Shown: positions 1 to 15,043, counted from the stretch's first letter. The stretch: DNA of 64,000 nucleotides from Candidatus Nanoarchaeia archaeon (GCA_041489925.1 JBGPSD010000005.1:1581-65580); one strand, 5' to 3'. A program made the numbers and translations. The notes: a model not told the origin generated them from the sequence alone.

Positions 1-393
1 TCCGCCCCTTTTTACAGTGATTTCAACTGTGAATTTGGTCCGATAAGGGCAGGTTTCAGCTACGCAAACGCCCCCTTTTGAAGTTTGCTTAAAATAATTC
101 TTTCCGCCATTTGCGCAGTCTTCGCTGGTTGGTTTGGGCTTTTCAGGAACAATCTTGGGCATTACAGAGGATATTTCCCTGACTGGTTTTGCGGCGGGTT
201 TCACAGGCGGCAAATCTGCTTTTGTTTCCTCATGAGGTCCTGCCACAACCATTTTTCGCGGCGCGCTTGGTTTTGTGTAAAGAAGGCACTTTAATTCATC
301 GCCCTTATGTGCGCAGTCATACGCGCCCATACACATGCCTGAAGGCTGGTCAAAATACTGCCGTTCACACCCGCTTTCGGTTGGAATCCCCAT
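1..393 (-). CDS. Cys-rich hypothetical protein (C-terminus runs off the left edge)
   Basis: Manual minus-strand translation from the ATG at 393-391 gives MGIPTESGCERQYFDQPSGMCMGAYDCAHKG... and stays open to position 1. It is absent from the ORF track because there is no stop in the window. It shares a Y(F)-x-P-x3-4-C motif with the next two genes. Confidence 0.4.
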   Translation of the reverse strand, partial: MGIPTESGCERQYFDQPSGMCMGAYDCAHKGDELKCLLYTKPSAPRKMVVAGPHEETKADLPPVKPAAKPVREISSVMPKIVPEKPKPTSEDCANGGKNYFKQTSKGGVCVAETCPYRTKFTVEITVKRGG

Positions 394-436
394 ATAGAAC
401 AATACTTCTCGGGCTTTTATAAATCTGCGTCAGAAA

Positions 437-664
437 TCAGACAGGCTTTGCATTAGTGTTCAGTTCGGGATTGTGCTTTTTGCAGGTGTAATATTTATAC
501 GCGCCATGTGCCGTTTCAACCCTGAATTCGCACGGATAACTGACACCACACGAGCGCTTTTCAGGATTGTAGAATATTCCGGTTTTCTTGCACAGCCCAA
601 CCCTGTCTATCCTTTTTGATTCGCTCAGCGCCCTGTCATCAATGCTGCCTTTTTCATCAGCCAT
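437..664 (-). CDS. small Cys-rich hypothetical protein
   Basis: Track ORF 437..679 trimmed to the ATG at 664 (MADEKGS...). A TTTATAAA box lies 22 nt upstream on the minus strand. Contains motif GIFYNPEKRSC. Confidence 0.45.
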   Translation of the reverse strand: MADEKGSIDDRALSESKRIDRVGLCKKTGIFYNPEKRSCGVSYPCEFRVETAHGAYKYYTCKKHNPELNTNAKPV

Positions 665-716
665 GCGCGAAATTAGCAATTTGTTGTTTATAAAACTTTG
701 TCAGAAACTGAGCATA

Positions 717-1229
717 TCAGACGTTGAATCTCTCGCAGTAAGCGTACTCTTTGCCGTTTTCAACCAGAGGCATCATCAGTTCCAGCTGCTGGTGGGGGCA
801 CGCGGCAGTTCCTGTTGCGAGGCAAACCCCCTTGTGATAAAGAACCCTTGTTTCAGGGCACGCCTCCAAGTTGTATCTGATGCATTTCGCAAACTGTCTG
901 CTCTTGAATTCAGGATTGCTGGACCTGCCAGTGAATCTCGCTTCAGTCTTGTATTTGCAGGACATTGAATCATCTGCAGTGCAGGCGCCTCCCAAAAGGA
1001 AAACCTTGCTTCCCAATGCGCACTGCTCAGGGGTTGGCTTGACTTGTGCAGCCTGCTCTGTTTTTCGTATCATCATTGTTTCGCCGCGTGGCCTTGGGCC
1101 GTGCTTCCTGCACTTGTTTCCTGCGTACTTGTGCGGGCATTTGGCATTAGTGTCGCAGACTTGGTTGTCAGGGTTGTAGAATACCTTGTCTGCCCAGCAA
1201 TTTTTGACTGCCTCTTCAATGCCTGCCAT
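717..1229 (-). CDS. Cys-rich hypothetical protein
   Basis: 170-aa ORF with motif KVFYNPDNQVC and many Cys. A TTTTATAAG box lies about 22 nt upstream of the ATG. Confidence 0.5.
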   Translation of the reverse strand: MAGIEEAVKNCWADKVFYNPDNQVCDTNAKCPHKYAGNKCRKHGPRPRGETMMIRKTEQAAQVKPTPEQCALGSKVFLLGGACTADDSMSCKYKTEARFTGRSSNPEFKSRQFAKCIRYNLEACPETRVLYHKGVCLATGTAACPHQQLELMMPLVENGKEYAYCERFNV

Positions 1230-1284
1230 ATGAACCGATACAAATATTCCGCTTATAAAACTTCGGCAAAATCAGAACTTGATA

Positions 1285-1342
1285 TGTCGGAAACACTTAC
1301 GGGTGTTTCCGAGCACGCTCAAGAACCCTGATGGTTCTTGAC
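1285..1342 (+). repeat. double-hairpin element, copy F1 (core GAGCACGCTCA)
   Basis: TGTCGGAAAC-acttacgggt-GTTTCCGAGCACGCTCAAGAACC-ctgat-GGTTCTTGAC. Two stem-loops flank a palindromic core. Related copies lie at 26269-26324 and 56896-56935. This copy overlaps the 3' end of the oxidoreductase gene. Confidence 0.7.
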
Positions 1343-2698
1343 GTTCCAGAAAGCCCTCTGCACAACTTCTGGCAGTGCAGGATGGACGTGGATTGCGTGC
1401 AAAATCCCATTAACGCCTAATTTCCCCTTCATTGCAACAACAACTTCGTGAATCAAAATTGAAGCATCAGAGCCAAGTATGTGGCAGCCAAGAATCGCTT
1501 TTGTTTTAGGATCAGCAAGAACCTTCACAAACCCGTCCTTGTCCTCAATTGACTTTCCATAGGCAGTGTCATAATGCCTGTATCTGCCCACAACATAAGG
1601 AATCTTTTTCTCCTTTAATTCCTCCTCTGTCATTCCAACACCTGCAATCTGGGGCGAGGAAAACACTGCGTGGGGCATTGCGTCATAAGGAACCCTGTGT
1701 TTTTGTTTTGGATTAAGCGCGTTTTCAACAGCAAAGGAAGCCTCAAGGTTGGCAGAGTGCTTGAACAAATACACCCCTGCAATGTCGCCAATAGCCCAAA
1801 TGCCAGGGACATTTGTCTCCATAAACTCATTTGTCGTTATGAAGCCAGGCTTGTAAGTTAGCACTCCTGTCTTTGCAACGTCAAGGATGTCAGTGTTTGG
1901 AATCCTGCCTGTGGCGACAAGCAATTGCTCGCCTGCAACAATGCGCTTTTGCTTTCCAACAGAGTATTCTACCGCGATGTTTTTGCCTTGCTTGAAGACC
2001 CTTTTTGTTGTTGCGTTAAGTATGACATTGTGCTTTTTCGCAAAAACCCTGGTAAATGCCTGCGCAATCTCAGAATCCTCTGCTGTGACAAGCCAGCCGC
2101 TCCTCTGCAAAACAGTCACTTTTGTGCCCATAGAGCCAAAGAAGTGAGCCAGTTCTGCAGCAATGTAGCCGCCCCCTATTATTACAAGGCTTGCGGGCTG
2201 TTTTGGCAGCCTGAGAGCCTCGTCAGAAGTTATGTAATTTACCTTGTCCAAACCAGGAATCTGCGGTATTGAAGGCCTTGTTCCTGCGCAGATGAATATT
2301 TTGTCAGCTGTAATTACATCCTTTCCAACTTTTAGCTTTTTCTTTCCGACAAATTTTGCAGTTGTTTTGTAGACAGTGACGTTTTTTGCTTCCCTGTTTC
2401 CCTGCTCTATTTCCTTTGCCTCTGTGTCAACAGTTTCTGAAACGCGCTTAATTATCGCTTTCCAGTCAATGCCCTCCACCTTTGCTTTTATTCCGAGCAG
2501 TTGCGCGCGGTTTATCTCGTCCATCACATCTGCACTGCGGATAAGCATCTTTGAAGGCACACAACCGCGGTTCAAACAAGTGCCGCCAAAAGCACCCTGC
2601 TCAACAACTGCCACCTTTAACCCGCGCTCAGCAGCATAAGCGGAAATAATCAGCCCAGAACCCGCGCCTATTACGATTGCATCAAACCTCTTTTCCAT
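1319..2698 (-). CDS. lpd: class I pyridine nucleotide-disulfide oxidoreductase (dihydrolipoyl dehydrogenase-like)
   Basis: N-terminal FAD motif GAGSGL, redox disulfide GGTCLNRGCVPSK, second Rossmann motif IIGGGYIAAE, C-terminal HVHPALPE dimerisation/active-site motif. Confidence 0.88.
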   Translation of the reverse strand: MEKRFDAIVIGAGSGLIISAYAAERGLKVAVVEQGAFGGTCLNRGCVPSKMLIRSADVMDEINRAQLLGIKAKVEGIDWKAIIKRVSETVDTEAKEIEQGNREAKNVTVYKTTAKFVGKKKLKVGKDVITADKIFICAGTRPSIPQIPGLDKVNYITSDEALRLPKQPASLVIIGGGYIAAELAHFFGSMGTKVTVLQRSGWLVTAEDSEIAQAFTRVFAKKHNVILNATTKRVFKQGKNIAVEYSVGKQKRIVAGEQLLVATGRIPNTDILDVAKTGVLTYKPGFITTNEFMETNVPGIWAIGDIAGVYLFKHSANLEASFAVENALNPKQKHRVPYDAMPHAVFSSPQIAGVGMTEEELKEKKIPYVVGRYRHYDTAYGKSIEDKDGFVKVLADPKTKAILGCHILGSDASILIHEVVVAMKGKLGVNGILHAIHVHPALPEVVQRAFWNVKNHQGS

Positions 2699-2963
2699 GC
2701 CCCTGTTGGGGCATATATTGTATATAAATGCTTTTAAACATCAAAACGATACATTTATATACTGGAGTATATAGGTTGTATACAGCAGAGACAAAAGGTA
2801 GCACGGCACAAGAAAACTGGTGCTGTGTTGGAAGACTTGTTCTTCCTGGTCTATCACTTGACAAGCAGGGCTTGTCGAGTTCTTCGCCAATCGAGATTGG
2901 CGAGATTTTGTCAATGGCAAACAAAAGGTAGAAACCGGGTAACTTGGTTTCGGAGCAGAAACA

Positions 2964-4145
2964 ATGAAATTTACAGAGATGAATTTGAAGCCTCACTTTA
3001 TAGAGGCATTAAGCAAACAAAATATTACAGAGCCAACAAATGTCCAGGAAAAGACAATCCCTGTCATGATGACAGGAAAGGACATTATAGTCCGTTCCAA
3101 GACAGGCTCTGGAAAGACAATAGCATTCTTATTGCCAATAATGGAGCATTTGCACCCTCACGGCTTGCAGGCACTGATCCTCGCGCCCACAAGGGAGCTC
3201 GCATTGCAGACAGAGAAGGAAATCAGGAAGCTTGACAAAAACGTCACGTCCGTAACGATTTACGGCGGAGTCAGCATAAACCCGCAGATGGAGAAGCTTG
3301 AGCAGGGCGTCCAGATTGTCGTCGGAACTCCAGGAAGGATTCTTGACCACATGGAGCGCGGCACGATTGACTTTTCAAAGATTCGCTGGGTTGTCCTTGA
3401 CGAGGCAGATAGAATGCTTGACATGGGATTCATAGAAGACGTTCACAGGATCCTGAGCGCGACCCCAAAGGACAGGCAGACAACAATGTTCTCGGCAACA
3501 ATGCCTGCGGAAATCGTGATGCTTACAGAGGACTGCATGAAGCCTGACGCGAAAAGGATTATGCTCGAGCAGGACGAAATCACAGTCAAGAAAATCAGGC
3601 AGGTGTGCTACGGGCTTGACCAGAAGGAAAAGCTTGACACGCTCGTGAAGGTTTTGAGAAAGCCTGACGTGAAGAAATCCATAATTTTCTGCAACACAAA
3701 GAGCTGGGCGGACTCGCTCGGCAGAATCCTCAGAAACAAGGGATTCTGTGTCGGAAGTTTGCACTCAGCACTGAGCCAGCAGCGCAGGAACGTTGTAATC
3801 CAGGATTTCAAGGAAGGCAGGTTCAATATCCTCGTCGCCACAGACGTTGCGGCAAGGGGACTGCACATTGACGACGTCTCGCACGTCATCAACTACGACC
3901 TTCCGAAAAACCCAAAGGACTACATCCACCGTATCGGAAGAACCGGACGCGCTGGAGAGGAAGGCGACGCTATCAGCTTCTGCACCCAAAAAGACGAGCC
4001 AATGCTGAAAAACATTGAGCGCGAAATTCAGATGACTCTGGATTTGCAGACGCTCACAGGCGGAAAGCTGCAGCGCGTTGAAAGGCCGCAGGTAACTATG
4101 GCATCATCTGCGTCTGACGGCGACTGGGGCAATCTGCTCGATTAA
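2964..4145 (+). CDS. DEAD-box ATP-dependent RNA helicase
   Basis: Motifs SKTGSGKT, PTRELA, VLDEADRM, SAT and HRIGRTGRAG. A T-rich tract follows the stop. Confidence 0.93.
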   Translation: MKFTEMNLKPHFIEALSKQNITEPTNVQEKTIPVMMTGKDIIVRSKTGSGKTIAFLLPIMEHLHPHGLQALILAPTRELALQTEKEIRKLDKNVTSVTIYGGVSINPQMEKLEQGVQIVVGTPGRILDHMERGTIDFSKIRWVVLDEADRMLDMGFIEDVHRILSATPKDRQTTMFSATMPAEIVMLTEDCMKPDAKRIMLEQDEITVKKIRQVCYGLDQKEKLDTLVKVLRKPDVKKSIIFCNTKSWADSLGRILRNKGFCVGSLHSALSQQRRNVVIQDFKEGRFNILVATDVAARGLHIDDVSHVINYDLPKNPKDYIHRIGRTGRAGEEGDAISFCTQKDEPMLKNIEREIQMTLDLQTLTGGKLQRVERPQVTMASSASDGDWGNLLD

Positions 4146-4164
4146 TTTTATTTTTTTCAAAATC

Positions 4165-4172
4165 TTTAAATA
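4165..4172 (+). promoter_or_regulatory. TATA-like box for tRNA-Val
   Basis: TTTAAATA lies 27 nt upstream of tRNA position 1. Confidence 0.5.
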
Positions 4173-4199
4173 CAGAGCAGAGGGAACGCTATCCTATTC

Positions 4200-4272
4200 G
4201 AGCCCGTAGTTTAGCGGTCATAACGCCTCGTTGACGTCGAGGAGGTCGCCAGTTCGAATCTGGCCGGGCTCA
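4200..4272 (+). tRNA. tRNA-Val (anticodon GAC)
   Basis: Hand-folded cloverleaf: acceptor GAGCCCG/CGGGCUC, anticodon stem CCUCG/CGAGG with loop UUGACGU, T arm GCCAG-UUCGAAU-CUGGC, discriminator A. 73 nt, no encoded CCA. Confidence 0.9.
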
Positions 4273-4339
4273 TGAGCATCAGCGAATGAGCACGGACAGG
4301 CTCGTCAATCGCAATTGACCGCTGTCTGGCCGGGCTCAT
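4259..4339 (+). repeat. structured insertion E1 with duplicated tRNA-Val 3' end
   Basis: 15-nt TCTGGCCGGGCTCAT occurs at 4259-4273 and 4325-4339. The 51 nt between are GAGCATCAGCGA + ATGAGCACGGACAG (antisense of the target, 12/14) + GCTC + GTCAAT-cgca-ATTGAC + CGCTG. Confidence 0.8.
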
Positions 4340-4408
4340 CAGGACTTTCTGAGGAATAAACGACTACAAATGGGGTGGCTCCGCCACAGAGACCAGCCAT
4401 AGACCAAG

Positions 4409-6763
4409 TTATATGAAATTAGCTGCGCTGCCTGGTTCTTGTGCTTCTTTGGTTTCGTCCAATACGTTTGATGAGCTGGCGATGCGCTCCAGTGCCTGCT
4501 TGTGCTGGGGGTGCTGAAGCCTTTCAAGCGCAACTTTCTCAATCTGCCTGACACGCTCCCTTGTCACCTTCATTATTTCCCCGATTTCCTCGAGAGTCCT
4601 GCGCTGGACAAACCTTTCCCGAATTACTTGCAGCTGTTTTGGCTTGAGAATTTGCTCAAGATATCCCCAGAGCTCCTGGTTGTTCAGCGCCTCGCCAGCG
4701 CTTTCCAGCCTGGGGTCAAGCCGCCCAAGAAAATCGCCGATTACAGAGTCATCGTCCTCTGAAATTGCGTTGTCAATGGATGAAAACCTTTTTGCCCAGC
4801 CTCTGAGCTTGCACATCTGCCAGGGCGTCATGCCCATTCTTTCCGCAATTTCATTTATTGACGGCTCCTGGTAGTTGGTCTGGATAAATTTATCAACTTC
4901 CTGGAGATACTTTCCTAGTAGCGCCCTTATGTGAATAGGCCTTCGCAACCCAAGCCCCTGCACTTCGTCAATATATCTGGTGACGCTTTGCTTTATCCAC
5001 CAGCTTGCGTATGTTGTCAGTTTTCCGAGTTCAGGGTCCCACTTGTCAACTGCAGTCATGGCGCCCAGGTTTGCGTGGCTTATCAGGTCAATCCAGCGGT
5101 CGGTGAAGCTGCCGTGCTTTCCCCTTGTCGCGTATTTCTTTGCCCAGAACGCGCTTAGCTTTGCAATCTGCAGGACAAGGGTGTCGCGCGATTCGCGGTA
5201 AATTGCGTAGCTCTTGATTGCCTCCCTGCGGCGGTCACGCGAACCAATATGCGGTTTGTCAGCGACGTATCTTGAGACAATAGGAATAAGGGTTCGCGGC
5301 CGGAACTTATTCATCCTGTAAATCTGCACAACCTCGTCCTCAAGCCGCTCGTACTCCTTCAGTAAACTCTCCCTGCTTTTGCCTGTTTTCTCTTTCAGCG
5401 CGTTCTCAAGATTCACAGCCCTTTGAGCGCGCAGTTCCAGCCTGGCTGTGACGCTTTTCCAGGCGCCCATCTTCGCGCTTGCCTTATACGCGTCGCACTC
5501 AAAAATGCTTGTTGACTGGCGCAAATCCCCTGACTCAATAAGCGAGAGAATCTCCTTTGCGACCGCAGCTGCGGCGTGGGGGTTCCTGAGCGTGAGATAC
5601 ATGAATTTTTCCCTGTGCTCATTCATCGTGTTGCAGATTTCCTTCTGCTTTTCCGCGCTCATTACCCTGGCATTTGCGACTTTCTTGAAATAATACGGGA
5701 TTGCATCCTCCACCCTGTTCTTTGGGGGGTCGAGGTTGATTCCCTTTTTGATAATATCAAATACGTGGTCCACATCTATTTCAGAAACCTTCACCCCTAC
5801 CTGCTCAAGCTGGTCCCTTACCTTTTCGATTTTCTCAAAGTCAGAATTGCCAACAACGCCGAGAACGGCTGTGTACGAAACAACCCCTGCAGCAACCCAC
5901 TTGCTCAGCAATCCGTGCGGGATTGATTTGGCAAGCTCCCTTTCAACAGCCCTCTTGACAATGTTGCCCTCTTTTGCAAACCTTTGCTCGTCAATGAGTT
6001 TCTTCAGGTCTGCAAATTTGTAAAAGACGCGGTTGTTGCGCGTTATTGTCGCAACCTGGTGATATTCTGCCGCGTGCTTTATCCTGTGATAATCAAGATA
6101 AGGTTTTGTAGCCCTCAATGCCTTCCTTATCGGCAGGTATTCCTCGCCAGGCTCTCTCTGTTCCTCGATAAAAGCGAGGTTTCGGTAGCGCTGGCTTACA
6201 AGCCCTGAGCGCCTGTTCTTTGGAAGCAGGGCTGTTTCCTTGAGGTCTGTTGATATTGCGGTGTAAACATCCTTCAACAGGCTTATTGGAATCCCGCCCT
6301 TGACCCTGAAATATTCAGGCATTGCAATGCAATTAATCCGGAGGAATGGCAGCGATGCAACCTGGCCATTGTTTTCAGGATATGACTTGAAGATTTTTTC
6401 CCTTGCCTGCTCAACATACGCCTGAAAGTCTGCGATAAGGACTGATTTTGATGAGCCAAGGCTGTTTCCATACTTGCTTTTGAAAAACTCCTGGACAGGC
6501 GCCGTATCCGTGATGTCAAACGCGTTAGCCAGCTCCTCAAGGCTCAACCGCTGAAAAAGCCCAACATCATCGACGTGAATCATGTCCCTGAAAGTCTGGC
6601 TTTCCACGCCAAGTGTCCTGTTCAGGTTCCTGTGCCTTGAGAATCCCTCGTAAATGTCAACAGCGTCAACGCAGGGGAAAACCTGCGGCACTTCCATCGC
6701 GCAAAGGTATTCCTTGTCATAATCCGCTGCGGTAACAGCACCGTAGAACTTACCTTTGGGCAT
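4409..6763 (-). CDS. sigma-70 family protein with a long N-terminal extension
   Basis: The C-terminal ~300 aa match bacterial RpoD motif by motif. Region 2: LISHANLGAMTAVDKWDPELGKLTTYASWWIKQSVTRYI. Region 3: SINEIAERMGMTPWQM. Region 4.2: RTLEEIGEIMKVTRERVRQIEKVALERLQHP. Region 1.2-like: EDAIPYYFKKV. Confidence 0.85.
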   Translation of the reverse strand: MPKGKFYGAVTAADYDKEYLCAMEVPQVFPCVDAVDIYEGFSRHRNLNRTLGVESQTFRDMIHVDDVGLFQRLSLEELANAFDITDTAPVQEFFKSKYGNSLGSSKSVLIADFQAYVEQAREKIFKSYPENNGQVASLPFLRINCIAMPEYFRVKGGIPISLLKDVYTAISTDLKETALLPKNRRSGLVSQRYRNLAFIEEQREPGEEYLPIRKALRATKPYLDYHRIKHAAEYHQVATITRNNRVFYKFADLKKLIDEQRFAKEGNIVKRAVERELAKSIPHGLLSKWVAAGVVSYTAVLGVVGNSDFEKIEKVRDQLEQVGVKVSEIDVDHVFDIIKKGINLDPPKNRVEDAIPYYFKKVANARVMSAEKQKEICNTMNEHREKFMYLTLRNPHAAAAVAKEILSLIESGDLRQSTSIFECDAYKASAKMGAWKSVTARLELRAQRAVNLENALKEKTGKSRESLLKEYERLEDEVVQIYRMNKFRPRTLIPIVSRYVADKPHIGSRDRRREAIKSYAIYRESRDTLVLQIAKLSAFWAKKYATRGKHGSFTDRWIDLISHANLGAMTAVDKWDPELGKLTTYASWWIKQSVTRYIDEVQGLGLRRPIHIRALLGKYLQEVDKFIQTNYQEPSINEIAERMGMTPWQMCKLRGWAKRFSSIDNAISEDDDSVIGDFLGRLDPRLESAGEALNNQELWGYLEQILKPKQLQVIRERFVQRRTLEEIGEIMKVTRERVRQIEKVALERLQHPQHKQALERIASSSNVLDETKEAQEPGSAANFI

Positions 6764-7682
6764 TACCAGTCACCATGCCGAGTGCGGCTTCAACATTTTC
6801 CAGAAGATACCCTGCAGTTTTCACGCCGCCCTGACTGCTCGTGACCACATTGCCAAGAGCCTTCTTGAACTTCTCATCCTGCAGGTAGGTGCGCATTTGC
6901 TCATATGACATTTTGCCCATCACCCTCACATCTTCGATAGTGAGGACTTTTCCGCTGACACTTGCGAGCCTTGGATGGATTGTGCTGTCCTTTTCCTGCC
7001 TCAAAAGCTCAACGAGTGCGTATGCCATACTGCCAGGATTTGCGACTTGCTGGCGTCTGCCTGTCTTTATGCTGTGTTTTGCAATGACATCCTTGTATTT
7101 TGCCCTGTATGACTGAACCCTTTCATTGTCAGGGACAAAGTTATAAACCTCAAACACAGCATTGCGGATAATCCTCGCAATGGTCATTTTCTTTTCAGAG
7201 GCGGCAGGAGTGCTCTCAACCCTTTGTTCAAGCCCTGCTGGCTTTTCAGCTCGTTCAATTCTCGGTGCAGGAGGTGAGTAATCTCTTGCAGGTTTTGGCT
7301 TCGCAATAGGCACTGGCGTTACTGCAGGCGCTGCTTCATAATGCATTTTTGGCTTTGCAACCGGCGCTGGTGTTACTGCAAGAACTGGCGTGTGATACTG
7401 CGTTTCAGGCTCTGGCTTTTTTACAGCGGGCTTTGCAGTGTAATGCATTTTTGGCTTGAAAACATAATGCCTTGCAGTTTTGCCTGCATACAGCGCAAGA
7501 GCCTTCCTGATGAAATCATCATCATTCAAAGGCGATGCAAGAATGGCAGCTGCAAGCAACTGCTTTGCAACATTCCTTCTCAGCCTTTTATCCTTGCTGT
7601 TAGCTATGCTGACAAGCCCCATCTCAAGAATACGCTCAAGGGAAATTTCAACCCGCCTTTCAAGTTTCTGCAAACCAGTCAT
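6750..7682 (-). CDS. hypothetical protein, co-operonic with the sigma-like gene
   Basis: Track ORF 6750..7916 trimmed to Met79 (MTGLQKLERR...), because the upstream part runs through the divergent promoter and the start of the 7810 gene. Its stop overlaps the sigma gene start by 14 nt. Internal repeat KPKMHY-x-A-x-PAV occurs twice. Confidence 0.5.
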   Translation of the reverse strand: MTGLQKLERRVEISLERILEMGLVSIANSKDKRLRRNVAKQLLAAAILASPLNDDDFIRKALALYAGKTARHYVFKPKMHYTAKPAVKKPEPETQYHTPVLAVTPAPVAKPKMHYEAAPAVTPVPIAKPKPARDYSPPAPRIERAEKPAGLEQRVESTPAASEKKMTIARIIRNAVFEVYNFVPDNERVQSYRAKYKDVIAKHSIKTGRRQQVANPGSMAYALVELLRQEKDSTIHPRLASVSGKVLTIEDVRVMGKMSYEQMRTYLQDEKFKKALGNVVTSSQGGVKTAGYLLENVEAALGMVTGNAQR

Positions 7683-7809
7683 CCACCCACCGTAAACAAG
7701 GTTAAATTCGCTCTTTATAAAGTTTTTACTTCTAGGGAATATGCTTCGAATATCGCAGCCCGCATTCTTAAAGCAACATTTATAAACCCTGTCGCGAACT
7801 AAGACGACG

Positions 7810-8898
7810 ATGGCAACGCAGAGGTTTCCAAAAGACGGGGTGTTCAAGTACTTCTTCATAGGATTGTTTGTGTTGGTTGCAGCCCTCACATTCTGGGTTG
7901 CAAGGCCGTTCATCAATGCGCTGCTGGCAAGCGCGGTTGTAGCTTATGTCTTTTACCCGCTTTACGGCTGGCTGAACAAACACATCAAGTACAAGAACGT
8001 GTGCGCAGCGCTGGTTTCAGTACTCATACTGTTATTGTTCATCGGACCCTTGTTCCTTGTCGTCGAATCAGCAGCACCTGACGCAACATACACATATGTC
8101 AGGGCAAAGCAGAAAATAATGAGCGGCGAATTCATAGACATTGCGTGCCCTGCACAAAACGAGAACTTCCTCTGCAGCTTCCAAAGCAGAATCAAGGTCT
8201 ATCTCCAGCAGCCTGACGTGAAATATTATGTCAGCGACACAATAAGCAAGGCAACAGGGTTCATAATGCAGAAAATCGCTGACATTGTTTTTGCCCTGCC
8301 ATTAATTTTTATCAACCTCTTTGTCACTTTTTTCGCAGTCTTTTACCTGCTTAGGGATGGTAAAAGCCTTGTTGAGCACGTAAAAGACCTGCTGCCAATA
8401 CATCCAAGGCACAGGGACCACATTTTCAAAAGGCTTCAGGACACTGCAAGGGCGGTCATATACGGCACTCTTGTGATTGCAGTCATACAGGGCATTGTCG
8501 GCGGGCTTGGATTTTGGCTCTTCGGAGTTTCATCGCCGCTGTTATGGGGCATGGCAATGGCATTATGCGCGCTTATCCCATTCATAGGAACAACAATAAT
8601 CTGGATTCCTGCAGGAGTTGCGATGATTCTCGCAGGCTCTGCAGAAGGAAATCCAGCATCTGTCTGGAAAGGAATAGGGCTGCTGGTTTACGGATTCTTC
8701 ATAATTTCAGGCATTGACAATGTGCTCAAGCCGACACTTATCGGCGACAGGGCAGGAGTCCACCCTGTGCTTATCCTGGTTGGAGTCATGGGCGGGCTTG
8801 CGGCATTCGGTGTCGCAGGATTTGTAATCGGACCGATAATCATGGCGGTCTTCAAGGTCTTCCTTGACATTTACAGGCAGGAATACGAAGAAGCATAA
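7810..8898 (+). CDS. AI-2E family transporter (PerM/UPF0118)
   Basis: Multi-TM protein with family-typical LLRDGKSL and IPFIGTTIIWIPA segments. ATTTATAAA lies ~23 nt upstream of the ATG. Confidence 0.82.
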   Translation: MATQRFPKDGVFKYFFIGLFVLVAALTFWVARPFINALLASAVVAYVFYPLYGWLNKHIKYKNVCAALVSVLILLLFIGPLFLVVESAAPDATYTYVRAKQKIMSGEFIDIACPAQNENFLCSFQSRIKVYLQQPDVKYYVSDTISKATGFIMQKIADIVFALPLIFINLFVTFFAVFYLLRDGKSLVEHVKDLLPIHPRHRDHIFKRLQDTARAVIYGTLVIAVIQGIVGGLGFWLFGVSSPLLWGMAMALCALIPFIGTTIIWIPAGVAMILAGSAEGNPASVWKGIGLLVYGFFIISGIDNVLKPTLIGDRAGVHPVLILVGVMGGLAAFGVAGFVIGPIIMAVFKVFLDIYRQEYEEA

Positions 8899-8915
8899 AA
8901 AAAGAGGAGCAGGGG

Positions 8916-9008
8916 ATGAAGCTTAAAGTCAAAGACAATGAAAAAGCTGCGCTTTTTCAAGCCCTTAACTCTCAACCGAGTGATAACAAATGAAACTGAG
9001 AGTTAAGG
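8916..9008 (+). promoter_or_regulatory. 25-codon upstream ORF plus a 12-bp hairpin enclosing the deoA start codon
   Basis: uORF MKLKVKDNEKAALFQALNSQPSDNK (8916-8993) has a GAGGAG-like upstream motif and ends in ATGA overlap with the deoA ATG (8990). CCTTAACTCTCA (8963-8974) is the exact reverse complement of TGAGAGTTAAGG (8997-9008). Confidence 0.5.
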
Positions 9009-10483
9009 ATATGGACATAGCTACAGGCGACGTCCAGGTCGTAATTCTTAATGAGAAAGACGCAGATATGCTTGACCTGCACCACAATGACCGCATCTTC
9101 GTGAGGAAAGACAGGCGCCACACAATCGCAGTCCTTGACATCGGGGAAAGCGAAAAGGCAGTGCCGGCTGGCTCAATAGGGCTTTTTGAGGAAGTTCTTG
9201 ACGCACTGTACGCAAAAGACGGAGACACTGTGTCAATCGAGCTCGCGAGAAAGCCAAAGAGCGTCGGCTACATAAGGAAAAAGCTCGACGGAAAAGAGCT
9301 GACCTACAGCGAAATCTATGAGGTCATAAAGGACATTGGCAAAAACCAGCTCACCGACATAGAGCTGGCGAGCTATGTGACTGCAAATTACATAACAGGA
9401 ATGAGCGACAATGAAATCATAAACCTCACAAAGGCAATGATTTTCACAGGCACCAAGCTGAAAATTGCGAAAAAGCCTGTTGTTGACATCCACTGCATTG
9501 GCGGAGTGCCTGGCAACAGGACAACAATGATTGTCGTCCCAATCCTAATCGCTGCAGGGCTGACAGTGCCAAAGACAAGCTCAAGGGCAATAACATCTCC
9601 GGCAGGCACTGCAGACACAATGGAAGTCCTGTGCCCTGTTTCTTTGCCGATTTCAAAGCTTTACCAGATTCTCAACAGTGTCGGCGGCTTCATAATCTGG
9701 GGCGGCTCTGTCAACCTTGCGCCTGCAGATGACCGCATTATCAAAGTCGAGCACCCGCTAAGCATTGACGCAGAAGGCCAGATGCTTGCATCGATTATGG
9801 CGAAAAAGGCAAGCGTCAGCGCAACGCACCTGCTGATGGACATTCCTGTCGGCAAGGGCGCAAAAGTTGAGGACAGGAAGCAGGCAGTCCACCTTCAGGG
9901 CCACTTTGAGCGCCTTGGAAAGGAGCTCGGGATTCAGGTCTGCACGATTATAACGCAGGGCTCAGAGCCGATAGGAAACGGCATAGGGCCTGTCCTTGAG
10001 GCAAAAGACTGCCTTTGGGTCTTGAAGAATGATTCAAGGGCGCCTCAGGATTTGAGGAGAAAAAGCCTTGAAATGGCAGCAGTCGCGCTTGAATTTGCAG
10101 GAGCAGCAAAAAAAGGGCAGGGAATGCAGATGGCGACAGAAATCCTGAACAGCGGCAAGGCATACAAGGTGTTTGTTGACATGATTCGCGCGCAGGGCGG
10201 CAAAGATGTTGACCCTGAAAGCCTTAAGCCCTGCCCATTGCAGTACACCTATTCCGCGCCAAAGGCAGGACTGGTGAAATCCCTTGACAATATCTCAATC
10301 GCGCGCATAGCAAGGATGGCAGGGGCGCCAAGGGACCCTGACTCAGGAATACTTCTCCACCGCCACTGCGGAGATTCTGTGAAAAAAGGGGAGCCGATAA
10401 TGACAATTTACGCGCACACAAAAGAAAAGCTCGGCTATGCAATAGATATCCTGAAAGACCTTGACGGCATTATTGTTCAGTAA
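8990..10483 (+). CDS. deoA: AMP phosphorylase (archaeal thymidine phosphorylase family)
   Basis: 497 aa. Has the archaeal-type N-terminal domain (MKLRVKDMDIATGDVQVVILNEKDA...) followed by the glycosyl transferase family 3 core (HCIGGVPGNRTT, TSSRAITSPAGTADT). Confidence 0.88.
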   Translation: MKLRVKDMDIATGDVQVVILNEKDADMLDLHHNDRIFVRKDRRHTIAVLDIGESEKAVPAGSIGLFEEVLDALYAKDGDTVSIELARKPKSVGYIRKKLDGKELTYSEIYEVIKDIGKNQLTDIELASYVTANYITGMSDNEIINLTKAMIFTGTKLKIAKKPVVDIHCIGGVPGNRTTMIVVPILIAAGLTVPKTSSRAITSPAGTADTMEVLCPVSLPISKLYQILNSVGGFIIWGGSVNLAPADDRIIKVEHPLSIDAEGQMLASIMAKKASVSATHLLMDIPVGKGAKVEDRKQAVHLQGHFERLGKELGIQVCTIITQGSEPIGNGIGPVLEAKDCLWVLKNDSRAPQDLRRKSLEMAAVALEFAGAAKKGQGMQMATEILNSGKAYKVFVDMIRAQGGKDVDPESLKPCPLQYTYSAPKAGLVKSLDNISIARIARMAGAPRDPDSGILLHRHCGDSVKKGEPIMTIYAHTKEKLGYAIDILKDLDGIIVQ

Positions 10484-11082
10484 CCTTCCTTGTGCTCTTT
10501 GGTGTGCTCGTTGTGTATCGCGACCATTGCCCTGTGCGAGGCATAAAGCCTTCCTTTCATCACCCTGAGAACGTTTTGCCCGCCACGTAATCCCCTTGCA
10601 GTAATCCTTGCCTCCTTTGCAAGCAGTTCAGCCTCTTTTGCAATCCTTGTTTCCATTGCGAGCTTTTCCGCTTCCTGTATAAGCCTTGCCTCCCTGAGCA
10701 GGACTGCCTCGTGCGCGACTTTCTGGCCGCTCTCTGCAACCTGCTCACCGACTGCGAAAATCGCAGCCACCTGCTCATAAGCCCTGAATGCAAGATAGAA
10801 CGGGAACACTGCAATCATGTCAAGCCAGTACAGCTTGAAAAACTTCCTGACATTTTTTGTCTTGAACCACTTGAAAACAAGGTCAACAACAAAGAAGAAA
10901 ACAATTATGTAGTCAAATATGGTCATCCACGGCCCGTGTTCGCTGATTGGATACAGAGTCCAGAACGGGTTTTCAACAATGAGCACGAGGGCAAGGATGA
11001 TAACCAGAAAAGGGATTATGTGGTCAGTAAAGTGCTCAAACTCATGAGTAAACCTCTGCCACAAACTCCTCTTTTTTTCCAT
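10477..11082 (-). CDS. membrane protein with a voltage-sensor-like (ion_trans S1-S3-like) N-terminus and coiled-coil tail
   Basis: FDYIIVFFFVVDLVFKWFKTKNVRKFFKLYWLDMIAVFPFYL resembles the S2-S3 segments of ion-transport proteins. No pore or selectivity filter. The ATG directly abuts the duplicated tRNA-Ser 3' end. Confidence 0.45.
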   Translation of the reverse strand: MEKKRSLWQRFTHEFEHFTDHIIPFLVIILALVLIVENPFWTLYPISEHGPWMTIFDYIIVFFFVVDLVFKWFKTKNVRKFFKLYWLDMIAVFPFYLAFRAYEQVAAIFAVGEQVAESGQKVAHEAVLLREARLIQEAEKLAMETRIAKEAELLAKEARITARGLRGGQNVLRVMKGRLYASHRAMVAIHNEHTKEHKEGY

Positions 11083-11243
11083 ACGCCGACGGCAGGACAG
11101 CGGTCAACTTCGCTGATGCTCGTTGACCAGCCATGTCCGTGCCCTGATGAGCACGGCCAGACAGCGGTCAACTTGCGAGTTGACGAGCCCTGCCTGAACC
11201 TCACATATGTTACCTACTATATATTTATACGCCGACGGCAGGA
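11081..11243 (-). repeat. composite structured insertion E4 with duplicated tRNA-Ser 3' end
   Basis: Minus-strand 17-nt TCCTGCCGTCGGCGTAT occurs at 11243-11227 and 11097-11081. The 129 nt between hold an AT-rich stretch, a near copy of the E1 3' half including a tRNA-Val 3' end (TCTGGCCGTGCTCATCAGG), and the hairpin GTCAAC-GAGCATCAGCGA-aGTTGAC followed by CGCTG. Confidence 0.75.
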
Positions 11244-11312
11244 TTTGAACCTACAATTCCTTTCGGAACCCGCTCTCAAGGCGGGCGCACTACCGGGTTA
11301 TGCGACGTCGGC
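11230..11312 (-). tRNA. tRNA-Ser (anticodon UGA)
   Basis: Hand fold: acceptor GCCGACG/CGUCGGC, anticodon stem CCCGC/GCGGG with loop CUUGAGA, long variable arm UUCCGAAAGGAAUU, T arm GUAGG-UUCAAAU-CCUGC, discriminator G. 83 nt. Confidence 0.85.
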
Positions 11313-11479
11313 ATTATACCTTGCGATTACTTGCCTCCGTCACAAGACCTCTCGTTCTGCGGAACTTCAAGGTTATGCGACGTCGGCATTATACACTGCG
11401 ATTACTGGCCGACCTCGCTGGATCCTTTGCTCTGCGGAGCTGCAGGATATGCGACGTCGGCATTATACCGTGCGATTAT
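11296..11479 (-). repeat. tandem triplication (74-75-bp period) of the tRNA-Ser 5' flank plus its first 14-17 nt
   Basis: 35-nt blocks at 11296-11330, 11371-11405 and 11445-11479 (minus strand GTAATCGCAnnGTATAATGCCGACGTCGCATAnCC). The intervening 39-40 nt are related to each other. The distal unit folds as GCCGACGTCGC...GCGAGGTCGGC. Confidence 0.8.
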
Positions 11480-11534
11480 GTTACTCATAATCAAATACAT
11501 ACTTTAAAAAACATGCGGTTCCAAGCGGTGTTTT

Positions 11535-12020
11535 ATGGCTGCGCACAGCATTGAAGACCTTAAGAGCATTTCTTACTGGGACATTATCCGCAGGAAAAAA
11601 CAAACCCCATTCATAGTATTCATCTCTTTTGTGCTTTCCTTTGCAGTATCACGGCTTACAGTAACATACGGCCCTGAGTGGCTCAGGCTGTACATCAGGA
11701 CTTACCACATACACCACTTTTACTATGGGTTTGCACTGCTCGCGATTGCAAACTGGATTGCGCTTACAACAAACAGGGAGCACATGTTCAAGCTCTCAGC
11801 AGTGCTTTTTGGTGTGGGAATGGGATTGTTTGTTGACGAGTTCGGGCTGTTGTTAACCTGCACAACACCGCCAATGGGCTGCGATTACTGGGCAAGGCAG
11901 AGCTATGACGTATTCATGATAATCGCAGGCATACTCCTTGCTGTGCTTTACTCAAAGCCTGTTCTTTCAAGAGTAGGGAGAATTATCAAATCAACTGTTG
12001 GCTTCTTCAGGACCAAATAA
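11535..12020 (+). CDS. hypothetical membrane protein
   Basis: 161-aa ORF with about 4 hydrophobic segments. CTTTAAAAAA lies ~23 nt upstream of the ATG. Confidence 0.5.
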   Translation: MAAHSIEDLKSISYWDIIRRKKQTPFIVFISFVLSFAVSRLTVTYGPEWLRLYIRTYHIHHFYYGFALLAIANWIALTTNREHMFKLSAVLFGVGMGLFVDEFGLLLTCTTPPMGCDYWARQSYDVFMIIAGILLAVLYSKPVLSRVGRIIKSTVGFFRTK

Positions 12021-12032
12021 AAAAGTATATAA

Positions 12033-12362
12033 ATGAGCTCATTCGCAGCCACGGATATGCTAAACCGGGAAAGAATGCTTTTGATGGCTTCACTTTTCAG
12101 CCTTGTTGTGCTTCTTGCACTCGGTACATTTGTTTTTCAGATTATAGAAGGCTGGCACTTTATTGACTCATTCTATTTCACAGGAATGACAATGCTGACT
12201 GTCGGCTATGGCGACATAGCTCCAAAAACATACGCAGGCAAAATCGTTGCGGTTATTTTCGCGTTCGTCTCGGTCGGAATAGCGCTGTATTCTGTAAACC
12301 TGCTTGCAAGGCACGCATTCAGGCACGGAATTGAAGAAACCAGCTGGCTGAAGAAGAAATAA
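12033..12362 (+). CDS. pore-only two-TM potassium channel
   Basis: Selectivity filter TVGYGD flanked by two hydrophobic helices. 109 aa, no gating domain. Confidence 0.8.
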   Translation: MSSFAATDMLNRERMLLMASLFSLVVLLALGTFVFQIIEGWHFIDSFYFTGMTMLTVGYGDIAPKTYAGKIVAVIFAFVSVGIALYSVNLLARHAFRHGIEETSWLKKK

Positions 12363-12364
12363 TT

Positions 12365-12526
12365 CTAAGGCTGAGGCAGCATAACAGGAATACCGTTCTT
12401 TACAGGATATTCCTTTTTGCATCTTGTGCAGACAAGCGCAGTGCTGTCTTTTTTCATTTTCAGCTCTGCCTTGTCTTCAGGGCATGCAAGAACTTCCAAT
12501 AACTCCTTTGGAACAACATCCACCAT
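12365..12526 (-). CDS. trm112: Trm112 family protein
   Basis: Manual translation of an ORF below the track size cutoff: MVDVVPKELLEVLACPEDKAELKMKKDSTALVCTRCKKEYPVKNGIPVMLPQP. Matches the Trm112/UPF0434 pattern LL-x-LACP...C-x2-C...YP-x3-GIPVML. Confidence 0.7.
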   Translation of the reverse strand: MVDVVPKELLEVLACPEDKAELKMKKDSTALVCTRCKKEYPVKNGIPVMLPQP

Positions 12527-12700
12527 GCTCCTCTAAAAGAACCGCAACGCTTAAAAGTCTTTCTATGCGAAGTATATTCTAGAGAGAATAAATCTTTATA
12601 AACCGCCTGCTTGGAGAAGTATAAATACATTGTGGTGGTAGTTCCTCTACATTACGAATTATAGTTCGGATGTGAGGGGATAAAGCTAAAAGTTGGGGGA

Positions 12701-13636
12701 GTGCACAAAGTGTACTACATAAAAAAGTGCCCTGAATGCGCGGGCATTAATCTTTTCGTAAACCGTGAAAAAGGGGAGATAATCTGCAAGGACTGCGGTC
12801 TTGTCGTCGAAGACAAGATGGTTGAGTTCGGGCAGGAGTGGCGCGAATTTGAGAGCGAGGGCTCTGGAGAACAGAGGCACCGCCGCACAGGCGCGCCAAT
12901 GACCTACACGCAGTACGACCAGGGCTTGGGAACAGAAGTCGGCCAGAAGGCAGACCTTTTCCAGCTCGGCTCAAAAGACAGGAACAAGTTCTTCAGGTTG
13001 AGAAAATGGCAGTACAGGATAAGCACTGCAATTGAAAGAAACCTCAAATTAGCCCTTGCCGAATTAAAGAGGGTTTCAAGCTATTTGAAGCTGCCAAAGT
13101 CAGTCGAGGAAGAGGCAGCAATGATTTACACCCAGGCAGTCCAGCGCGGGCTTGTCAGGGGCAGAAGCATGGAATCAGTTGTCTCAGGCGCGCTTTATGC
13201 AGCCTGCAGGCGCCACGAGGTTCCAAGGACTCTTGACGAGCTCTCAGAGGCGTCAAGCATTGAAAAGAAGGAAATCGGAAGGACATACCGCTTCGTGACA
13301 AGGGAACTCGGCATAACCATCCTGCCAAGCAATCCAGCTGACTACATCGCAAGGTTTGCAAGCTCACTGAAATTATCGCCAGAGACGCAGTCCAAGGCAG
13401 TTGAAATCCTTGAGCAGGCACAGCACGAGGAATTAACCTCTGGAAGAGGACCGACTGGCATTGCAGCAGCGTCATTGTACGTTGCAGCGCTGATGCATGG
13501 CGAGAAAAGGACGCAAAGGGAAGTTGCAGATGTCGCAGGAGTAACAGAAGTCACAATCAGGAACCGCTACAAGGAGCTTCTTGACGAGCTCAACCTTGAG
13601 CGCGAGATAAAGAAGACCAAGAAAAAGAAGCGCTAA
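12701..13636 (+). CDS. tfb: transcription initiation factor IIB
   Basis: N-terminal zinc ribbon CPEC...CKDCG, two cyclin-fold repeats, Lys-rich tail. TATA-like boxes lie upstream. The exact start is uncertain. Confidence 0.94.
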   Translation: MHKVYYIKKCPECAGINLFVNREKGEIICKDCGLVVEDKMVEFGQEWREFESEGSGEQRHRRTGAPMTYTQYDQGLGTEVGQKADLFQLGSKDRNKFFRLRKWQYRISTAIERNLKLALAELKRVSSYLKLPKSVEEEAAMIYTQAVQRGLVRGRSMESVVSGALYAACRRHEVPRTLDELSEASSIEKKEIGRTYRFVTRELGITILPSNPADYIARFASSLKLSPETQSKAVEILEQAQHEELTSGRGPTGIAAASLYVAALMHGEKRTQREVADVAGVTEVTIRNRYKELLDELNLEREIKKTKKKKR

Positions 13637-13697
13637 ACAGCGTGCTTTAAAAAGGGCATTCTGGTTATTATTCTTATTGTGTGGGTGAAGGGAATGC

Positions 13698-14720
13698 ATG
13701 GCTCTAACCGAAGCAGAAGCACTCAAGAGTTTGGAAGCTTTGACAGCAGCGCTCAGGGTCACTCACGGTACTGATTACCGCTATCGCGTTATAGCAATCA
13801 TTTCAGATGTGCATGCAAATCTCGAAGCTTTGATGGCAGTGCTTAAGGACATTGAATCAAGGGCTGATTCTTTTGGCGGAATTGACCAGATTGCCTGCAT
13901 TGGGGACATTGTCGGCTATGGCCCAAACCCAAATGAAGTCCTTTATTTTTTCCGCAAGCACAAAATTATTGCGCTGAAAGGCAACCATGACGAGGTTGTC
14001 ACCAACCCTGACAGCCCGCTTGTCGAAAACACCAACAAATATGCGCTTGAATCATTTGCATGGACAAGAAAACAGCTCAGCAAGAGGAAAATGGACTATC
14101 TAATAAACCTGCCCTGGCAGCTTGACGACGAAAATGAGATGTATGTCCACGGCGCGCCGTGCAGCAAAATAATCCCAGAATTCCACAGCGTTTTCTTTGA
14201 AGGCAATGATGAGGTTAACATTGATTATGCCAAGATGATGCAGTACTGTGACAGGGAATTGAGCATGGAACTGCACGACAAAAAAAAGATGGACATACAG
14301 CTAAACCACAGCTTTGAAACCCTGATTCAGATGAAAAAGCAAATAGGTTTTGTTGGTCATTCCCATTTTCCGAAAGCGTACCAATACTCAAAAGACCCTA
14401 AAACACCGCACCTTGAATTTCCTTTTTGCGGCGACAGCGAGCCGTCAAGGGATGAGCAGATGTTTGAGAGCACTGTGTGGGAATTGAGGTTAATGCCAGA
14501 CCATGTCTACATAATCAATCCAGGGGCAGTGGGGCAGCCAAGGGACGGCGACAGGAGAGCAAGCTATGGCATTCTTGACAGAACGCCAGACCCTGAAAAC
14601 GGCTCAGTTGGAACTTTCTATAATATCCGGGTGCCTTACAATCAGATGAAAACCATTAGAAAGATGCTGAAGGCAGGCATTTCATACAAGCTTGCTTACA
14701 GGCTGATATTTGGCAAGTGA
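13698..14720 (+). CDS. metallophosphoesterase family protein
   Basis: Calcineurin-like motifs ISDVHAN, GDIVGYGP, GNHD and GHSH. Confidence 0.8.
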   Translation: MALTEAEALKSLEALTAALRVTHGTDYRYRVIAIISDVHANLEALMAVLKDIESRADSFGGIDQIACIGDIVGYGPNPNEVLYFFRKHKIIALKGNHDEVVTNPDSPLVENTNKYALESFAWTRKQLSKRKMDYLINLPWQLDDENEMYVHGAPCSKIIPEFHSVFFEGNDEVNIDYAKMMQYCDRELSMELHDKKKMDIQLNHSFETLIQMKKQIGFVGHSHFPKAYQYSKDPKTPHLEFPFCGDSEPSRDEQMFESTVWELRLMPDHVYIINPGAVGQPRDGDRRASYGILDRTPDPENGSVGTFYNIRVPYNQMKTIRKMLKAGISYKLAYRLIFGK

Positions 14721-14722
14721 TG

Positions 14723-15043
14723 TCAGAACCTGAAAAGCTTTTTTTCAAAGCCGGCAACTTTGCCGTCTTTTACAATAACGCCCTCTTTCTTGAGCAATGC
14801 AATCTTCTGTGCAAGCTTTTTCCCTGACTTTGCGCCCTTGTAGCCGCCAATCCTTCCGTCAGAGCAGACAACCCTGTGGCACGGAACGCGGGGAGCATAA
14901 GGATTGTTCTTCAATGCGACTCCAACAGCGCGGTAAACCTGTCCATAGCCGCCCAGCGCATTGCCTATCTCGCGGTAAGTGGAGACTTTGCCTTTTGGAA
15001 TGCGCTTGCAGATAGAATAAACTTTTTCTGAGAATGATTTCAT
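14723..15043 (-). CDS. ogt: MGMT-family protein (methylated-DNA--protein-cysteine methyltransferase DNA-binding domain)
   Basis: Active-site motif VPCHRVV. 106 aa, equivalent to the C-terminal Ogt domain only. Confidence 0.85.
   Translation of the reverse strand: MKSFSEKVYSICKRIPKGKVSTYREIGNALGGYGQVYRAVGVALKNNPYAPRVPCHRVVCSDGRIGGYKGAKSGKKLAQKIALLKKEGVIVKDGKVAGFEKKLFRF

Follow-up and report, generated by a model that had tools for sequence, protein, structure and literature searches.

A two-gene cassette encoding a sigma-70-family protein in Woesearchaeota chromosomes

The window studied here is a stretch of 64,000 nucleotides (nt) from Candidatus Nanoarchaeia archaeon (GCA_041489925.1, JBGPSD010000005.1:1581-65580), with positions counted from its first letter. 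At 4409–7682 it carries two overlapping genes on the minus strand, the second of which encodes a sigma-70-family protein, and the first a shorter protein, below called the partner. Our preferred reading, to which we assign a probability of about 0.55, is that these genes form a chromosomal cassette of Woesearchaeota, whose products, a descendant of an RpoD-type sigma factor and its partner, act within the cell as a sequence-specific, promoter-type DNA-recognition factor.

The initial annotation of this DNA presented a sigma factor in an archaeon as a surprise. The factor is present, but the phenomenon had already been published for DPANN archaea (PMC6126073, PMC8204110). PMC6126073 credits Rinke et al. 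2013 with the first description of complete archaeal sigma factors, and Castelle et al. 2021 (PMC8204110, family fam00359) found sigma-70 genes to be especially common in Woesearchaeota, ruling out mis-binning and regarding the function as unclear. Our case is the same phenomenon in the same host group and, again, on a truly archaeal contig. The available excerpts of these reports do not describe the N-terminal extension of the sigma protein, the coupled partner and its fusion to sigma, the loss of motifs in regions 2.1 and 2.2, or the presence and absence of the cassette in related genomes.

The sigma module and its family

The protein encoded by the second gene has 784 amino acids (aa). Pfam detects in it Sigma70_r2 (32.9 bits, aa 559–598, cut-off 24), Sigma70_r3 (39.3 bits, aa 616–679, cut-off 25.3) and Sigma70_r4 (60 bits, aa 706–751, cut-off 24.1), and all three are matched in seven of seven full-length members of the family. 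The only NCBIfam model whose cut-off is passed is TIGR02937, the sigma-70 superfamily (80.5 bits against 42.9). The RpoD, RpoS and SigA models rank first (RpoD_Cterm 146 bits, E 1e-42), but the cut-offs of the RpoD equivalogs are missed, with 146 vs 354 bits for TIGR02393 and 146 vs 555 bits for NF004208. Region 1.2 is not called by Pfam in the window protein at E<=5; Sigma70_r1_2 is matched in a single family member (E 0.0011), and so is Sigma70_r1_1 (E 0.0011–0.0016).

Profile-to-profile comparison goes further. When the family was aligned by hhalign with an RpoD profile built from ten bacterial primary sigmas, residues 283–763 matched positions 60–580 of 583, that is, regions 1.1 to 4.2, with probability 100% and E 1.8e-61. 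Since this part is colinear with a primary sigma factor, only residues 1–282 are unaccounted for. The protein is thus laid out like a primary sigma: regions 1.1 and 1.2, the non-conserved region (NCR), and regions 2, 3 and 4, in the order seen in group 1. A sequence search of PDB with two family profiles yielded noise except for region 1.1 of SigA (7l7b_F, residues 4–69, E 0.13); the net charge of the matching segment is only -1.

Hence the complete sigma-70 module that had been proposed for the end of this open reading frame (ORF) stands for regions 2, 3 and 4, which exceed the Pfam cut-offs, and for region 1.2 it is recovered by hhalign but not by Pfam. Both motifs quoted in support of the proposal are present in the ORF. 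The N-terminal part of unknown function, put at about 450 aa, is in fact about 280 aa long, the other 170 aa or so being taken up by region 1.1, region 1.2 and a coiled coil that resembles the NCR. The isoelectric point of the protein is 9.15; housekeeping proteins encoded nearby are just as basic, and we therefore rejected this value as an indication that the protein binds DNA freely.

HMMER, run exhaustively against 1.8 billion representatives of clusters at 50% identity, gave full-length matches in six clusters only (P0001 and P0007–P0011, 26–37% identity), and thousands of ordinary sigmas matched residues 520–760 at about 115–140 bits. A shorter relative, P0012, also belongs to the family, bringing it to eight members. 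The family profile gives its members 520–607 bits, against 224 bits for the best bacterial sigma, a 300-bit gap. A neighbour-joining tree of regions 2–4 unites all eight in a single clade (bootstrap 39/50, computed on a subsample); the distances within the family are very long, 1.40 vs 0.89 among the bacterial sequences, and long-branch attraction may be behind the clade. A scan of genome contigs with the full-family alignment yielded no archaeal loci, being swamped by bacterial RpoD because universal sigma motifs had served as its patterns; the RpoD proteins, from many phyla, showed 31–38% identity in regions 2–4.

The relatives of the window gene are found in contexts that look archaeal or DPANN-like in three loci: with eIF2-gamma and an ATP-dependent ligase in L009, with archease/RtcB and the BatA-VWA-MoxR genes in L090, and with LonB in L095. 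The contexts in L003, L006 and L092 contain no bacterial markers, and no clear archaeal ones either. In distant relatives the gene pair resides in unrelated neighbourhoods, and therefore the cassette moves, or the genomes rearrange, on long timescales. Two observations were made at these loci. The BatA-VWA-DUF7502-MoxR-DUF58 cluster is situated in the window at 38401–45771, 30 kb from the gene pair, and in L090 the homologous BatA-VWA cluster (10234–18229) directly abuts the sigma gene. L095, a LonB-bearing contig of archaeal type, encodes at 3461–3781, two genes upstream of P0012, a protein of 106 aa with a Pfam match to Sigma54_DBD, the second bacterial-type sigma-related domain there.

The host of the window gene is an archaeon, and no gene of a bacterial RNA polymerase lies in the window. 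Pfam identifies TFB, PolB, Cbf5, L31e, S19e, the exosome subunits Rrp41 and Rrp4, and the proteasome alpha subunit, and the named members of the 90%-identity cluster of TFB are all Candidatus Woesearchaeota archaeon or Candidatus Nanoarchaeia archaeon. Together with RpoK, recognised by motif search, this bears out the archaeal neighbourhood described by the initial annotation. The 90% cluster of the sigma protein contains nine near-identical proteins from at least eight assemblies (NCBI, JGI, ENA, Logan), on contigs of up to 169 kb, and two independent JGI contigs have the same neighbours on both sides of the gene pair. The tetranucleotide correlation of 4409–7682 with the whole window is 0.917, at the 57th percentile of equal-sized windows, and the GC content at third codon positions, 0.59, is neighbour-like. 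Thus the suggestion that the gene is not a very recent transfer agrees with its composition, and a chimeric join, the named ground for discarding the finding, is excluded by the recurrence of the same junctions in independent assemblies and by the native composition.

The ratio of non-synonymous to synonymous substitution rates (dN/dS) of the sigma gene is 0.21 and 0.18 relative to the 87% and 97% identical orthologues, the lowest value within the gene, 0.086, being that of region 2; the housekeeping neighbours have 0.03–0.15. The gene is under purifying selection and is native to Woesearchaeota chromosomes. A separate observation concerns the synonymous rate (dS) relative to L001, where the gene occupies 10001–12355. 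For sigma it is 0.35, about half or less of that in the flanking genes (partner 1.30, AI-2E 1.19, TFB 0.71, AMP phosphorylase 0.65), which could reflect recent allelic exchange of sigma alone or an unusual synonymous constraint.

We compared seven family members with 144 bacterial matches, in E. coli numbering fixed by W433/W434 (the E. coli segment was used for numbering only). In bacterial sigmas Y430, W433, W434, Q437 and R441 serve in recognition of the non-template strand of the -10 element and in melting, and R584, E585, R586, R588 and Q589 recognise the -35 hexamer. Y430, W434, Q437 and R441 are kept in all seven proteins and W433 in six of them; the five residues for the -35 hexamer are kept in seven of seven. 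The acidic motif of the region 3.2 finger is retained in the family alignment as well. In contrast, the NLRLV motif of region 2.1 is replaced (N383 in none of the seven proteins, R385 in one, with K in most others, V387 in one), and so is DLIQEG of region 2.2 (Q406 in none, E407 in one, G408 in one); L412 is kept in two. These seven positions are 95–99% conserved among the 144 bacterial matches, which, being the best-scoring ones, are biased to primary sigmas. The DLIQEGN motif of region 2.2 is the principal contact of bacterial sigmas with the clamp helices of the beta' subunit. The module also has two indels, one being an insertion of 6 aa that separates region 2.1 from 2.2, the other a deletion of 4 aa within region 4.1. 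Judged by sequence, the residues that read DNA are intact and the canonical motif for docking on beta' is gone.

Overall, the family shares with RpoD/SigA the colinear arrangement from 1.1 to 4.2, the residues contacting the -10 and -35 elements and engaged in melting, and the structural relatives, as the top Foldseek matches are sigma70/SigA chains in holoenzyme structures. It differs in the archaeal host, the 280-aa N-terminal extension, the obligate upstream partner gene, the replaced NLRLV and DLIQEG motifs, the indels, the region 1.1-like charge of -1 and the score of 146 vs 354 bits.

Some resemblance to known systems is limited to the sigma module. MzaA of the MZA anti-phage system is likewise a long protein with a C-terminal sigma module, and its model NF041931 (726 aa) matches the window protein with 122 bits, the PADLOC model with 73.8 bits. 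However, only the sigma module is matched (model positions 458–723, and 425–662 in PADLOC), the cut-off is 800 bits, and no MZA partner genes are found nearby, the neighbours being tRNA-Val, a DEAD helicase and an AI-2E transporter. The phage sigma factors of PHROG 351 share the module too (141 bits), but the window provides no viral context.

The N-terminal extension and the partner gene

The N-terminal extension is specific to the family. It has no Pfam match in the window protein; weak matches to MerR_1 and HTH_17 occur, each in single family members. An AlphaFold2 (AF2) model based on a seven-sequence alignment is fairly confident (predicted local distance difference test 81, predicted template modelling score 0.66) and consists of repeated strand-helix-helix units. 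Foldseek finds for this model only local similarity of the winged-helix or MerR type, to GlnR, Sso10a-2, ArsR/SmtB, MarR and TrmB, with GlnR (4r4e_A) aligned over 58 aa at a root-mean-square deviation of 2.6, and no global structural match. Tentatively, the extension may be composed of several winged-helix modules providing additional binding of nucleic acids or proteins. No relationship between the extension and the partner was detected by hhalign. A profile of the extension made from a four-sequence alignment re-found the known contigs alone in the metagenome collection and nothing in IMG/VR.

The partner gene precedes sigma. The coupling to an unknown upstream protein with KPKMHY repeats, claimed by the initial annotation, is correct as to the overlap of 14 nt and the repeats, which start at aa 76 and aa 110; the length is 310 aa, not 311. 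The proposed search of relatives for the two-gene unit proved productive, as a homologue of the partner is situated upstream of sigma in seven of seven full-length loci (the window and six relatives), and in six of these it overlaps the sigma start by about 8–14 nt. In the remaining one, L090, about 50 nt lie between the end of the partner and the called start of sigma downstream, which may be called too short. The length of the partner varies from 235 to 1293 aa, and the part common to all loci is a C-terminal module of about 100–150 aa. By BLASTP the window partner matches those of L006 and L003 with E 2e-13 and 3e-13, respectively. Three partners contain a repeat of about 75 aa in one to several copies.

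The same repeat is fused to the N-terminus of sigma in P0012, where it is 45% identical to the L006 partner (E 1e-14) and also matches the partners of L009 (E 1e-10) and L003 (E 2e-9). By the Rosetta-stone argument this fusion suggests that sigma and the partner work together, and a physical interaction between them may be expected. The partner has no Pfam, NCBIfam, PHROG or PADLOC family, and a profile search with its C-terminal module returned family members only and nothing outside these loci. Its Pro/Ala/Lys-rich linker evolves fast; compared with L001, where sigma is 87% identical, the partner as a whole has an identity of only 50%, and its dN/dS is 0.30–0.35. As Castelle et al. 2021 (PMC8204110) state that no anti-sigma-like partner was identified, the partner appears to be a new observation.

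The expression signals in front of the partner are of archaeal appearance. A TATA-like box lies about 35 nt upstream of its ATG. In six of seven loci a box resembling AAAnnTTTAWAAAG with an A-rich run is seen 25–45 nt before the partner start, and four of these loci also have a GGTGG-type ribosome-binding run before that start. The cassette is probably expressed from the TATA box.

Genomic location of the cassette

The coordinates are collected in Table 1.

Table 1. Features of the cassette and its surroundings, in window coordinates
Feature	Position	Strand	Basis
tRNA-Val(GAC), convergent with sigma	4200..4272	+	ARAGORN, Rfam
136-bp spacer, hairpin and second copy of the tRNA 3' end (4325-4342)	4273..4408	+	sequence
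Two-gene cassette, absent from L097	approx. 4401..7732	.	boundaries by eye from alignments, ~10 nt accuracy
Sigma-70-family gene, 784 aa	4409..6763	-	ORF; Pfam r2/r3/r4; stop codon 4409-4411
Region 4, aa 691-784; TRERVRQIE invariant, 4-aa deletion in 4.1	4412..4693	-	Pfam r4
Region 3, aa 613-690, including acidic 3.2 'finger' (SEDDDSVIGDF)	4694..4927	-	Pfam r3, alignments
Region 2, aa 526-612	4928..5188	-	family/bacterial alignment
NCR-like helical insertion, aa 386-525	5189..5608	-	long helices in AF2 model; variable insertion of RpoD profile aligns
Region 1.2, aa 351-385 (DAIPYYFKKV...)	5609..5713	-	hhalign
Region 1.1-like segment and linker, aa 283-350	5714..5917	-	hhalign vs RpoD profile
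N-terminal extension, aa 1-282, family-specific	5918..6763	-	conserved across family alignments
Partner gene, 310 aa	6750..7682	-	ORF, ATG 7682; overlaps sigma ATG by 14 nt
Conserved C-terminal module of partner, ~aa 163-310 (...IHP...VYTIxDIR...GY...)	6753..7196	-	BLASTP, alignments
Pro/Ala/Lys-rich linker of partner, two KPKMHY repeats	7203..7502	-	composition, DNA repeats
Shine-Dalgarno-like run GGTGGGTGG directly before partner ATG	7683..7691	-	sequence, conserved in L001, L002, L003; inferred
Archaeal TATA-like box (CTTTATAAAG); an A-rich run resembling the B recognition element comes before it	7713..7722	-	sequence; function inferred
TFB	12701-13636		Pfam
RpoK	~57035-57290	-	motif search and translation only

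The cassette is not present in all close genomes. In the sister Woesearchaeota genome GCA_038884635.1 (L097), with identities of 96% for TFB, 86% for AMP phosphorylase and 87% for the DEAD helicase, the gene order is that of the window, PyrRedox-DEAD-tRNA-Val-AI2E-AMPpase...TFB...IleRS-L31e, without sigma and the partner. The missing 3.3-kb segment comprises both genes and the TATA box. As L097 is an outgroup to the window, L002 and L001, gain and loss of the cassette are equally parsimonious.

The 3' end of tRNA-Val (4259–4276) is repeated at 4325–4342, with 15 nt exact and 17 of 18 positions matching, and no third copy with up to two mismatches was found. In L097 the spacer (3641–3740) differs and carries a 29-nt duplicate of the tRNA end without the sigma cassette, and in L001, the 87% relative, the tRNA abuts the sigma stop codon with neither spacer nor duplicate. 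Hence the tRNA end, previously taken for an island integration site, does adjoin a 3.3-kb presence/absence difference, but the repeats do not bracket the cassette and no integrase is found. Since both copies are on the tRNA side, the sigma-less L097 has the duplication and the cassette-bearing L001 lacks it, the duplicated end is not a pair of attachment sites. A degenerate third copy at about 7742–7762 was considered as attR and rejected, as the sigma-less L097 shares most of this sequence.

The spacer forms a hairpin, with the second copy of the tRNA end as the 3' arm; its minimum free energy, -25.6 kcal/mol, is not significant (z -1.6). The gene of tRNA-Ser(TGA), at 11229–11313 on the minus strand, shares 17 nt of its 3' end with an exact copy at a distance of 146 nt (11081–11097 and 11227–11243), and three tandem partial copies of about 75 nt are seen beyond it, at 11289–11512. 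Integration scars, or else a small repeat element, may account for such recurrent duplications of tRNA ends. The tRNA at 63010–63101 scores 62 bits with Rfam, and ARAGORN assigned it a 4-nt 'anticodon' and left its identity undetermined; probably this is an archaeal tRNA with an intron.

Several other features of the window deserve mention. Its TFB has a sub-threshold match to Sigma70_r4 in the second cyclin repeat (E 1.9e-4, 21.3 vs 24.1 bits, Pfam), and the same faint match is seen in the TFB of L096. Three minus-strand ORFs at 17046–19705, one of them with RHS repeats (17046–17960), are conserved as a set in L097, with matches to RHS_repeat and TEN_YD-shell, an unusual cargo for a small DPANN genome. 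At 437–1229 there are two small Cys-rich ORFs of 80 and 170 aa with repeated 'FYNP..(x)C...C..K' motifs and no Pfam match, and the longer one has a conserved counterpart among the called genes of L002. The strongest compositional outliers lie at 52500–61200, with about 41% GC at 54–57 kb and about 52% GC at 57–61 kb, the latter segment being the superoperon of RpoK, the exosome (Rrp41, Rrp4) and proteasome alpha.

Possible functions of the cassette

According to the preferred reading, the second gene is a strongly diverged descendant of a bacterial primary sigma factor of the RpoD type, having kept its whole layout and gained a winged-helix-like extension of about 280 aa. The first gene supplies a partner translated together with sigma, in which the C-terminal module is conserved and the repeats vary, and the pair would be expressed from native archaeal signals. 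-35-like duplex DNA would still be read by region 4.2 and -10-like single-stranded DNA by regions 2.3/2.4, and the canonical surface for the clamp helices of bacterial beta' would have been given up. What follows would be either remodelled docking on the archaeal RNA polymerase (RNAP) or scaffolding by the partner, and we consider these about equally likely. Docking is favoured because regions 1.1, 1.2 and 3.2 and the melting residues are retained, scaffolding because the replacements in region 2.2 are not conserved and the cassette is dispensable. DNA binding and any contact with RNAP are both predictions from sequence. Action inside the archaeon is suggested by the lack of a transmembrane (TM) segment or signal-like N-terminus and by the apparently native expression signals.

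Several points weigh against this reading. Positions 406–408 vary in the family (SHA, SLG, GAA, SDA, SEA, SAA), which suggests that an interface was lost rather than newly gained; as the substitutions in region 2.2 are not fixed to one new consensus, they fit a lost or loosened contact with beta'. Docking on archaeal RNAP would require several new interfaces, and retention of regions 1.1, 1.2 and 3.2 is hard to explain in a DNA-binding protein independent of RNAP. Promoter-like sites of the sigma type are not enriched at 1–20000 of the window (25 vs 18.3 +/- 3.7), and no conserved sigma-type promoter is seen upstream of the cassette among the partner loci. The cassette is dispensable, as there is a sister genome without it. 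The bias of the bacterial comparison set and the dependence of the residue numbering on a single E. coli reference segment should be counted here as well.

A doubtful alternative is that sigma is a true alternative initiation factor, whose remodelled regions 2 and 4 would dock on the clamp coiled-coil of Rpo1 and on Rpo2, independently of TBP/TFB or in competition with TFB, with the partner helping or regulating. This coiled-coil is a conserved element of the clamp in every multisubunit RNAP. The holoenzyme-specific architecture (1.1, 1.2, Y430/W433/W434, 3.2 and the spacing between regions 2 and 4) has been under selection across deep divergence, the beta'-contact motif is replaced systematically, and the faint Sigma70_r4 match of the window TFB points the same way. 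However, no new consensus is seen at the replaced positions, sigma-type promoters are not enriched, a close relative does without the cassette and several interfaces would have to be reinvented. The most specific form of this idea, a domesticated bacterial primary sigma working as a partner-dependent factor of initiation or promoter melting for the archaeal (Pol II-like) RNAP, with a rebuilt docking surface and intact heads for reading -10 and -35, we regard as unlikely. TFB is similar to sigma as a functional analogue, with its role in promoter recognition and initiation and its helix-turn-helix modules, and differs in showing no homology at a detectable family level. Since the window also encodes a conserved TFB, sigma is not its replacement.

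Readings that place the function elsewhere are less likely. One of them, an effector delivered by a putative episymbiont to reprogram bacterial transcription through bacterial RNAP, with the partner as a chaperone or adaptor, seems improbable to us. The residues for -10 and -35 recognition are identical to those of bacterial primary sigmas and the full layout is kept, and symbiosis is generally predicted for DPANN archaea; yet the known DPANN hosts are archaea (both statements from PMC8204110). Moreover, N383, Q406, E407 and G408 are lost family-wide, the region 1.1-like segment is nearly devoid of net negative charge, neither a signal peptide nor a TM segment is present, and no secretion genes are adjacent.

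We hold it equally improbable that a virus or mobile element, having integrated at tRNA-Val, left or carries the cassette as its remnant or cargo, which regulates or once regulated genes of the element and persists as a semi-selfish module. This would explain the 3.3-kb presence/absence difference next to the tRNA, the tRNA-end duplications resembling integration scars, the unrelated neighbourhoods in distant relatives and the sigma dS of 0.35 against 0.65–1.3 in the flanks, and two DPANN viral genes annotated rpoS, one of them on a prophage, were noted in a 2025 study (PMC12647753). On the other hand, no integrase, capsid or other element gene is seen near the pair in the window or in the relatives' loci, and the repeats do not bracket the cassette and occur without it. 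The composition is fully native and selection purifying. No relatives were found in IMG/VR with the whole sigma protein and its N-terminal domain, or in GenBank phages by tblastn with that domain and the partner. Thus the roles of viral remnant and bacterial effector suggested by the initial annotation obtained no positive support, given the absence of viral and phage relatives, integrase, signal peptide and TM segment and the lost docking motif.

An artefact of assembly or binning, joining a bacterial gene to archaeal DNA, has only the general prior for bacterial-looking genes in metagenome-assembled genomes in its favour and can be dismissed, as the same gene with archaeal neighbours recurs in independent JGI, NCBI, ENA and Logan assemblies with native composition and archaeal promoter signals, and mis-binning was ruled out for such genes by Castelle et al. 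2021 (PMC8204110).

The role of sigma factors in cells that use TBP and TFB has been a question since 2013, and the cassette makes this question more testable. The analysis separates the sigma functions that have been conserved, DNA reading and melting and the 3.2 finger, from the abandoned one, the motif contacting the beta' clamp helices, and the syntenic genome without the cassette and the fusion variant provide natural controls. If sigma has been domesticated into a factor of the archaeal RNAP, a second, bacterial-style pathway of promoter recognition would exist beside TBP/TFB in one cell, and this would be a rare crossing of an initiation factor between two fundamentally different transcription systems.

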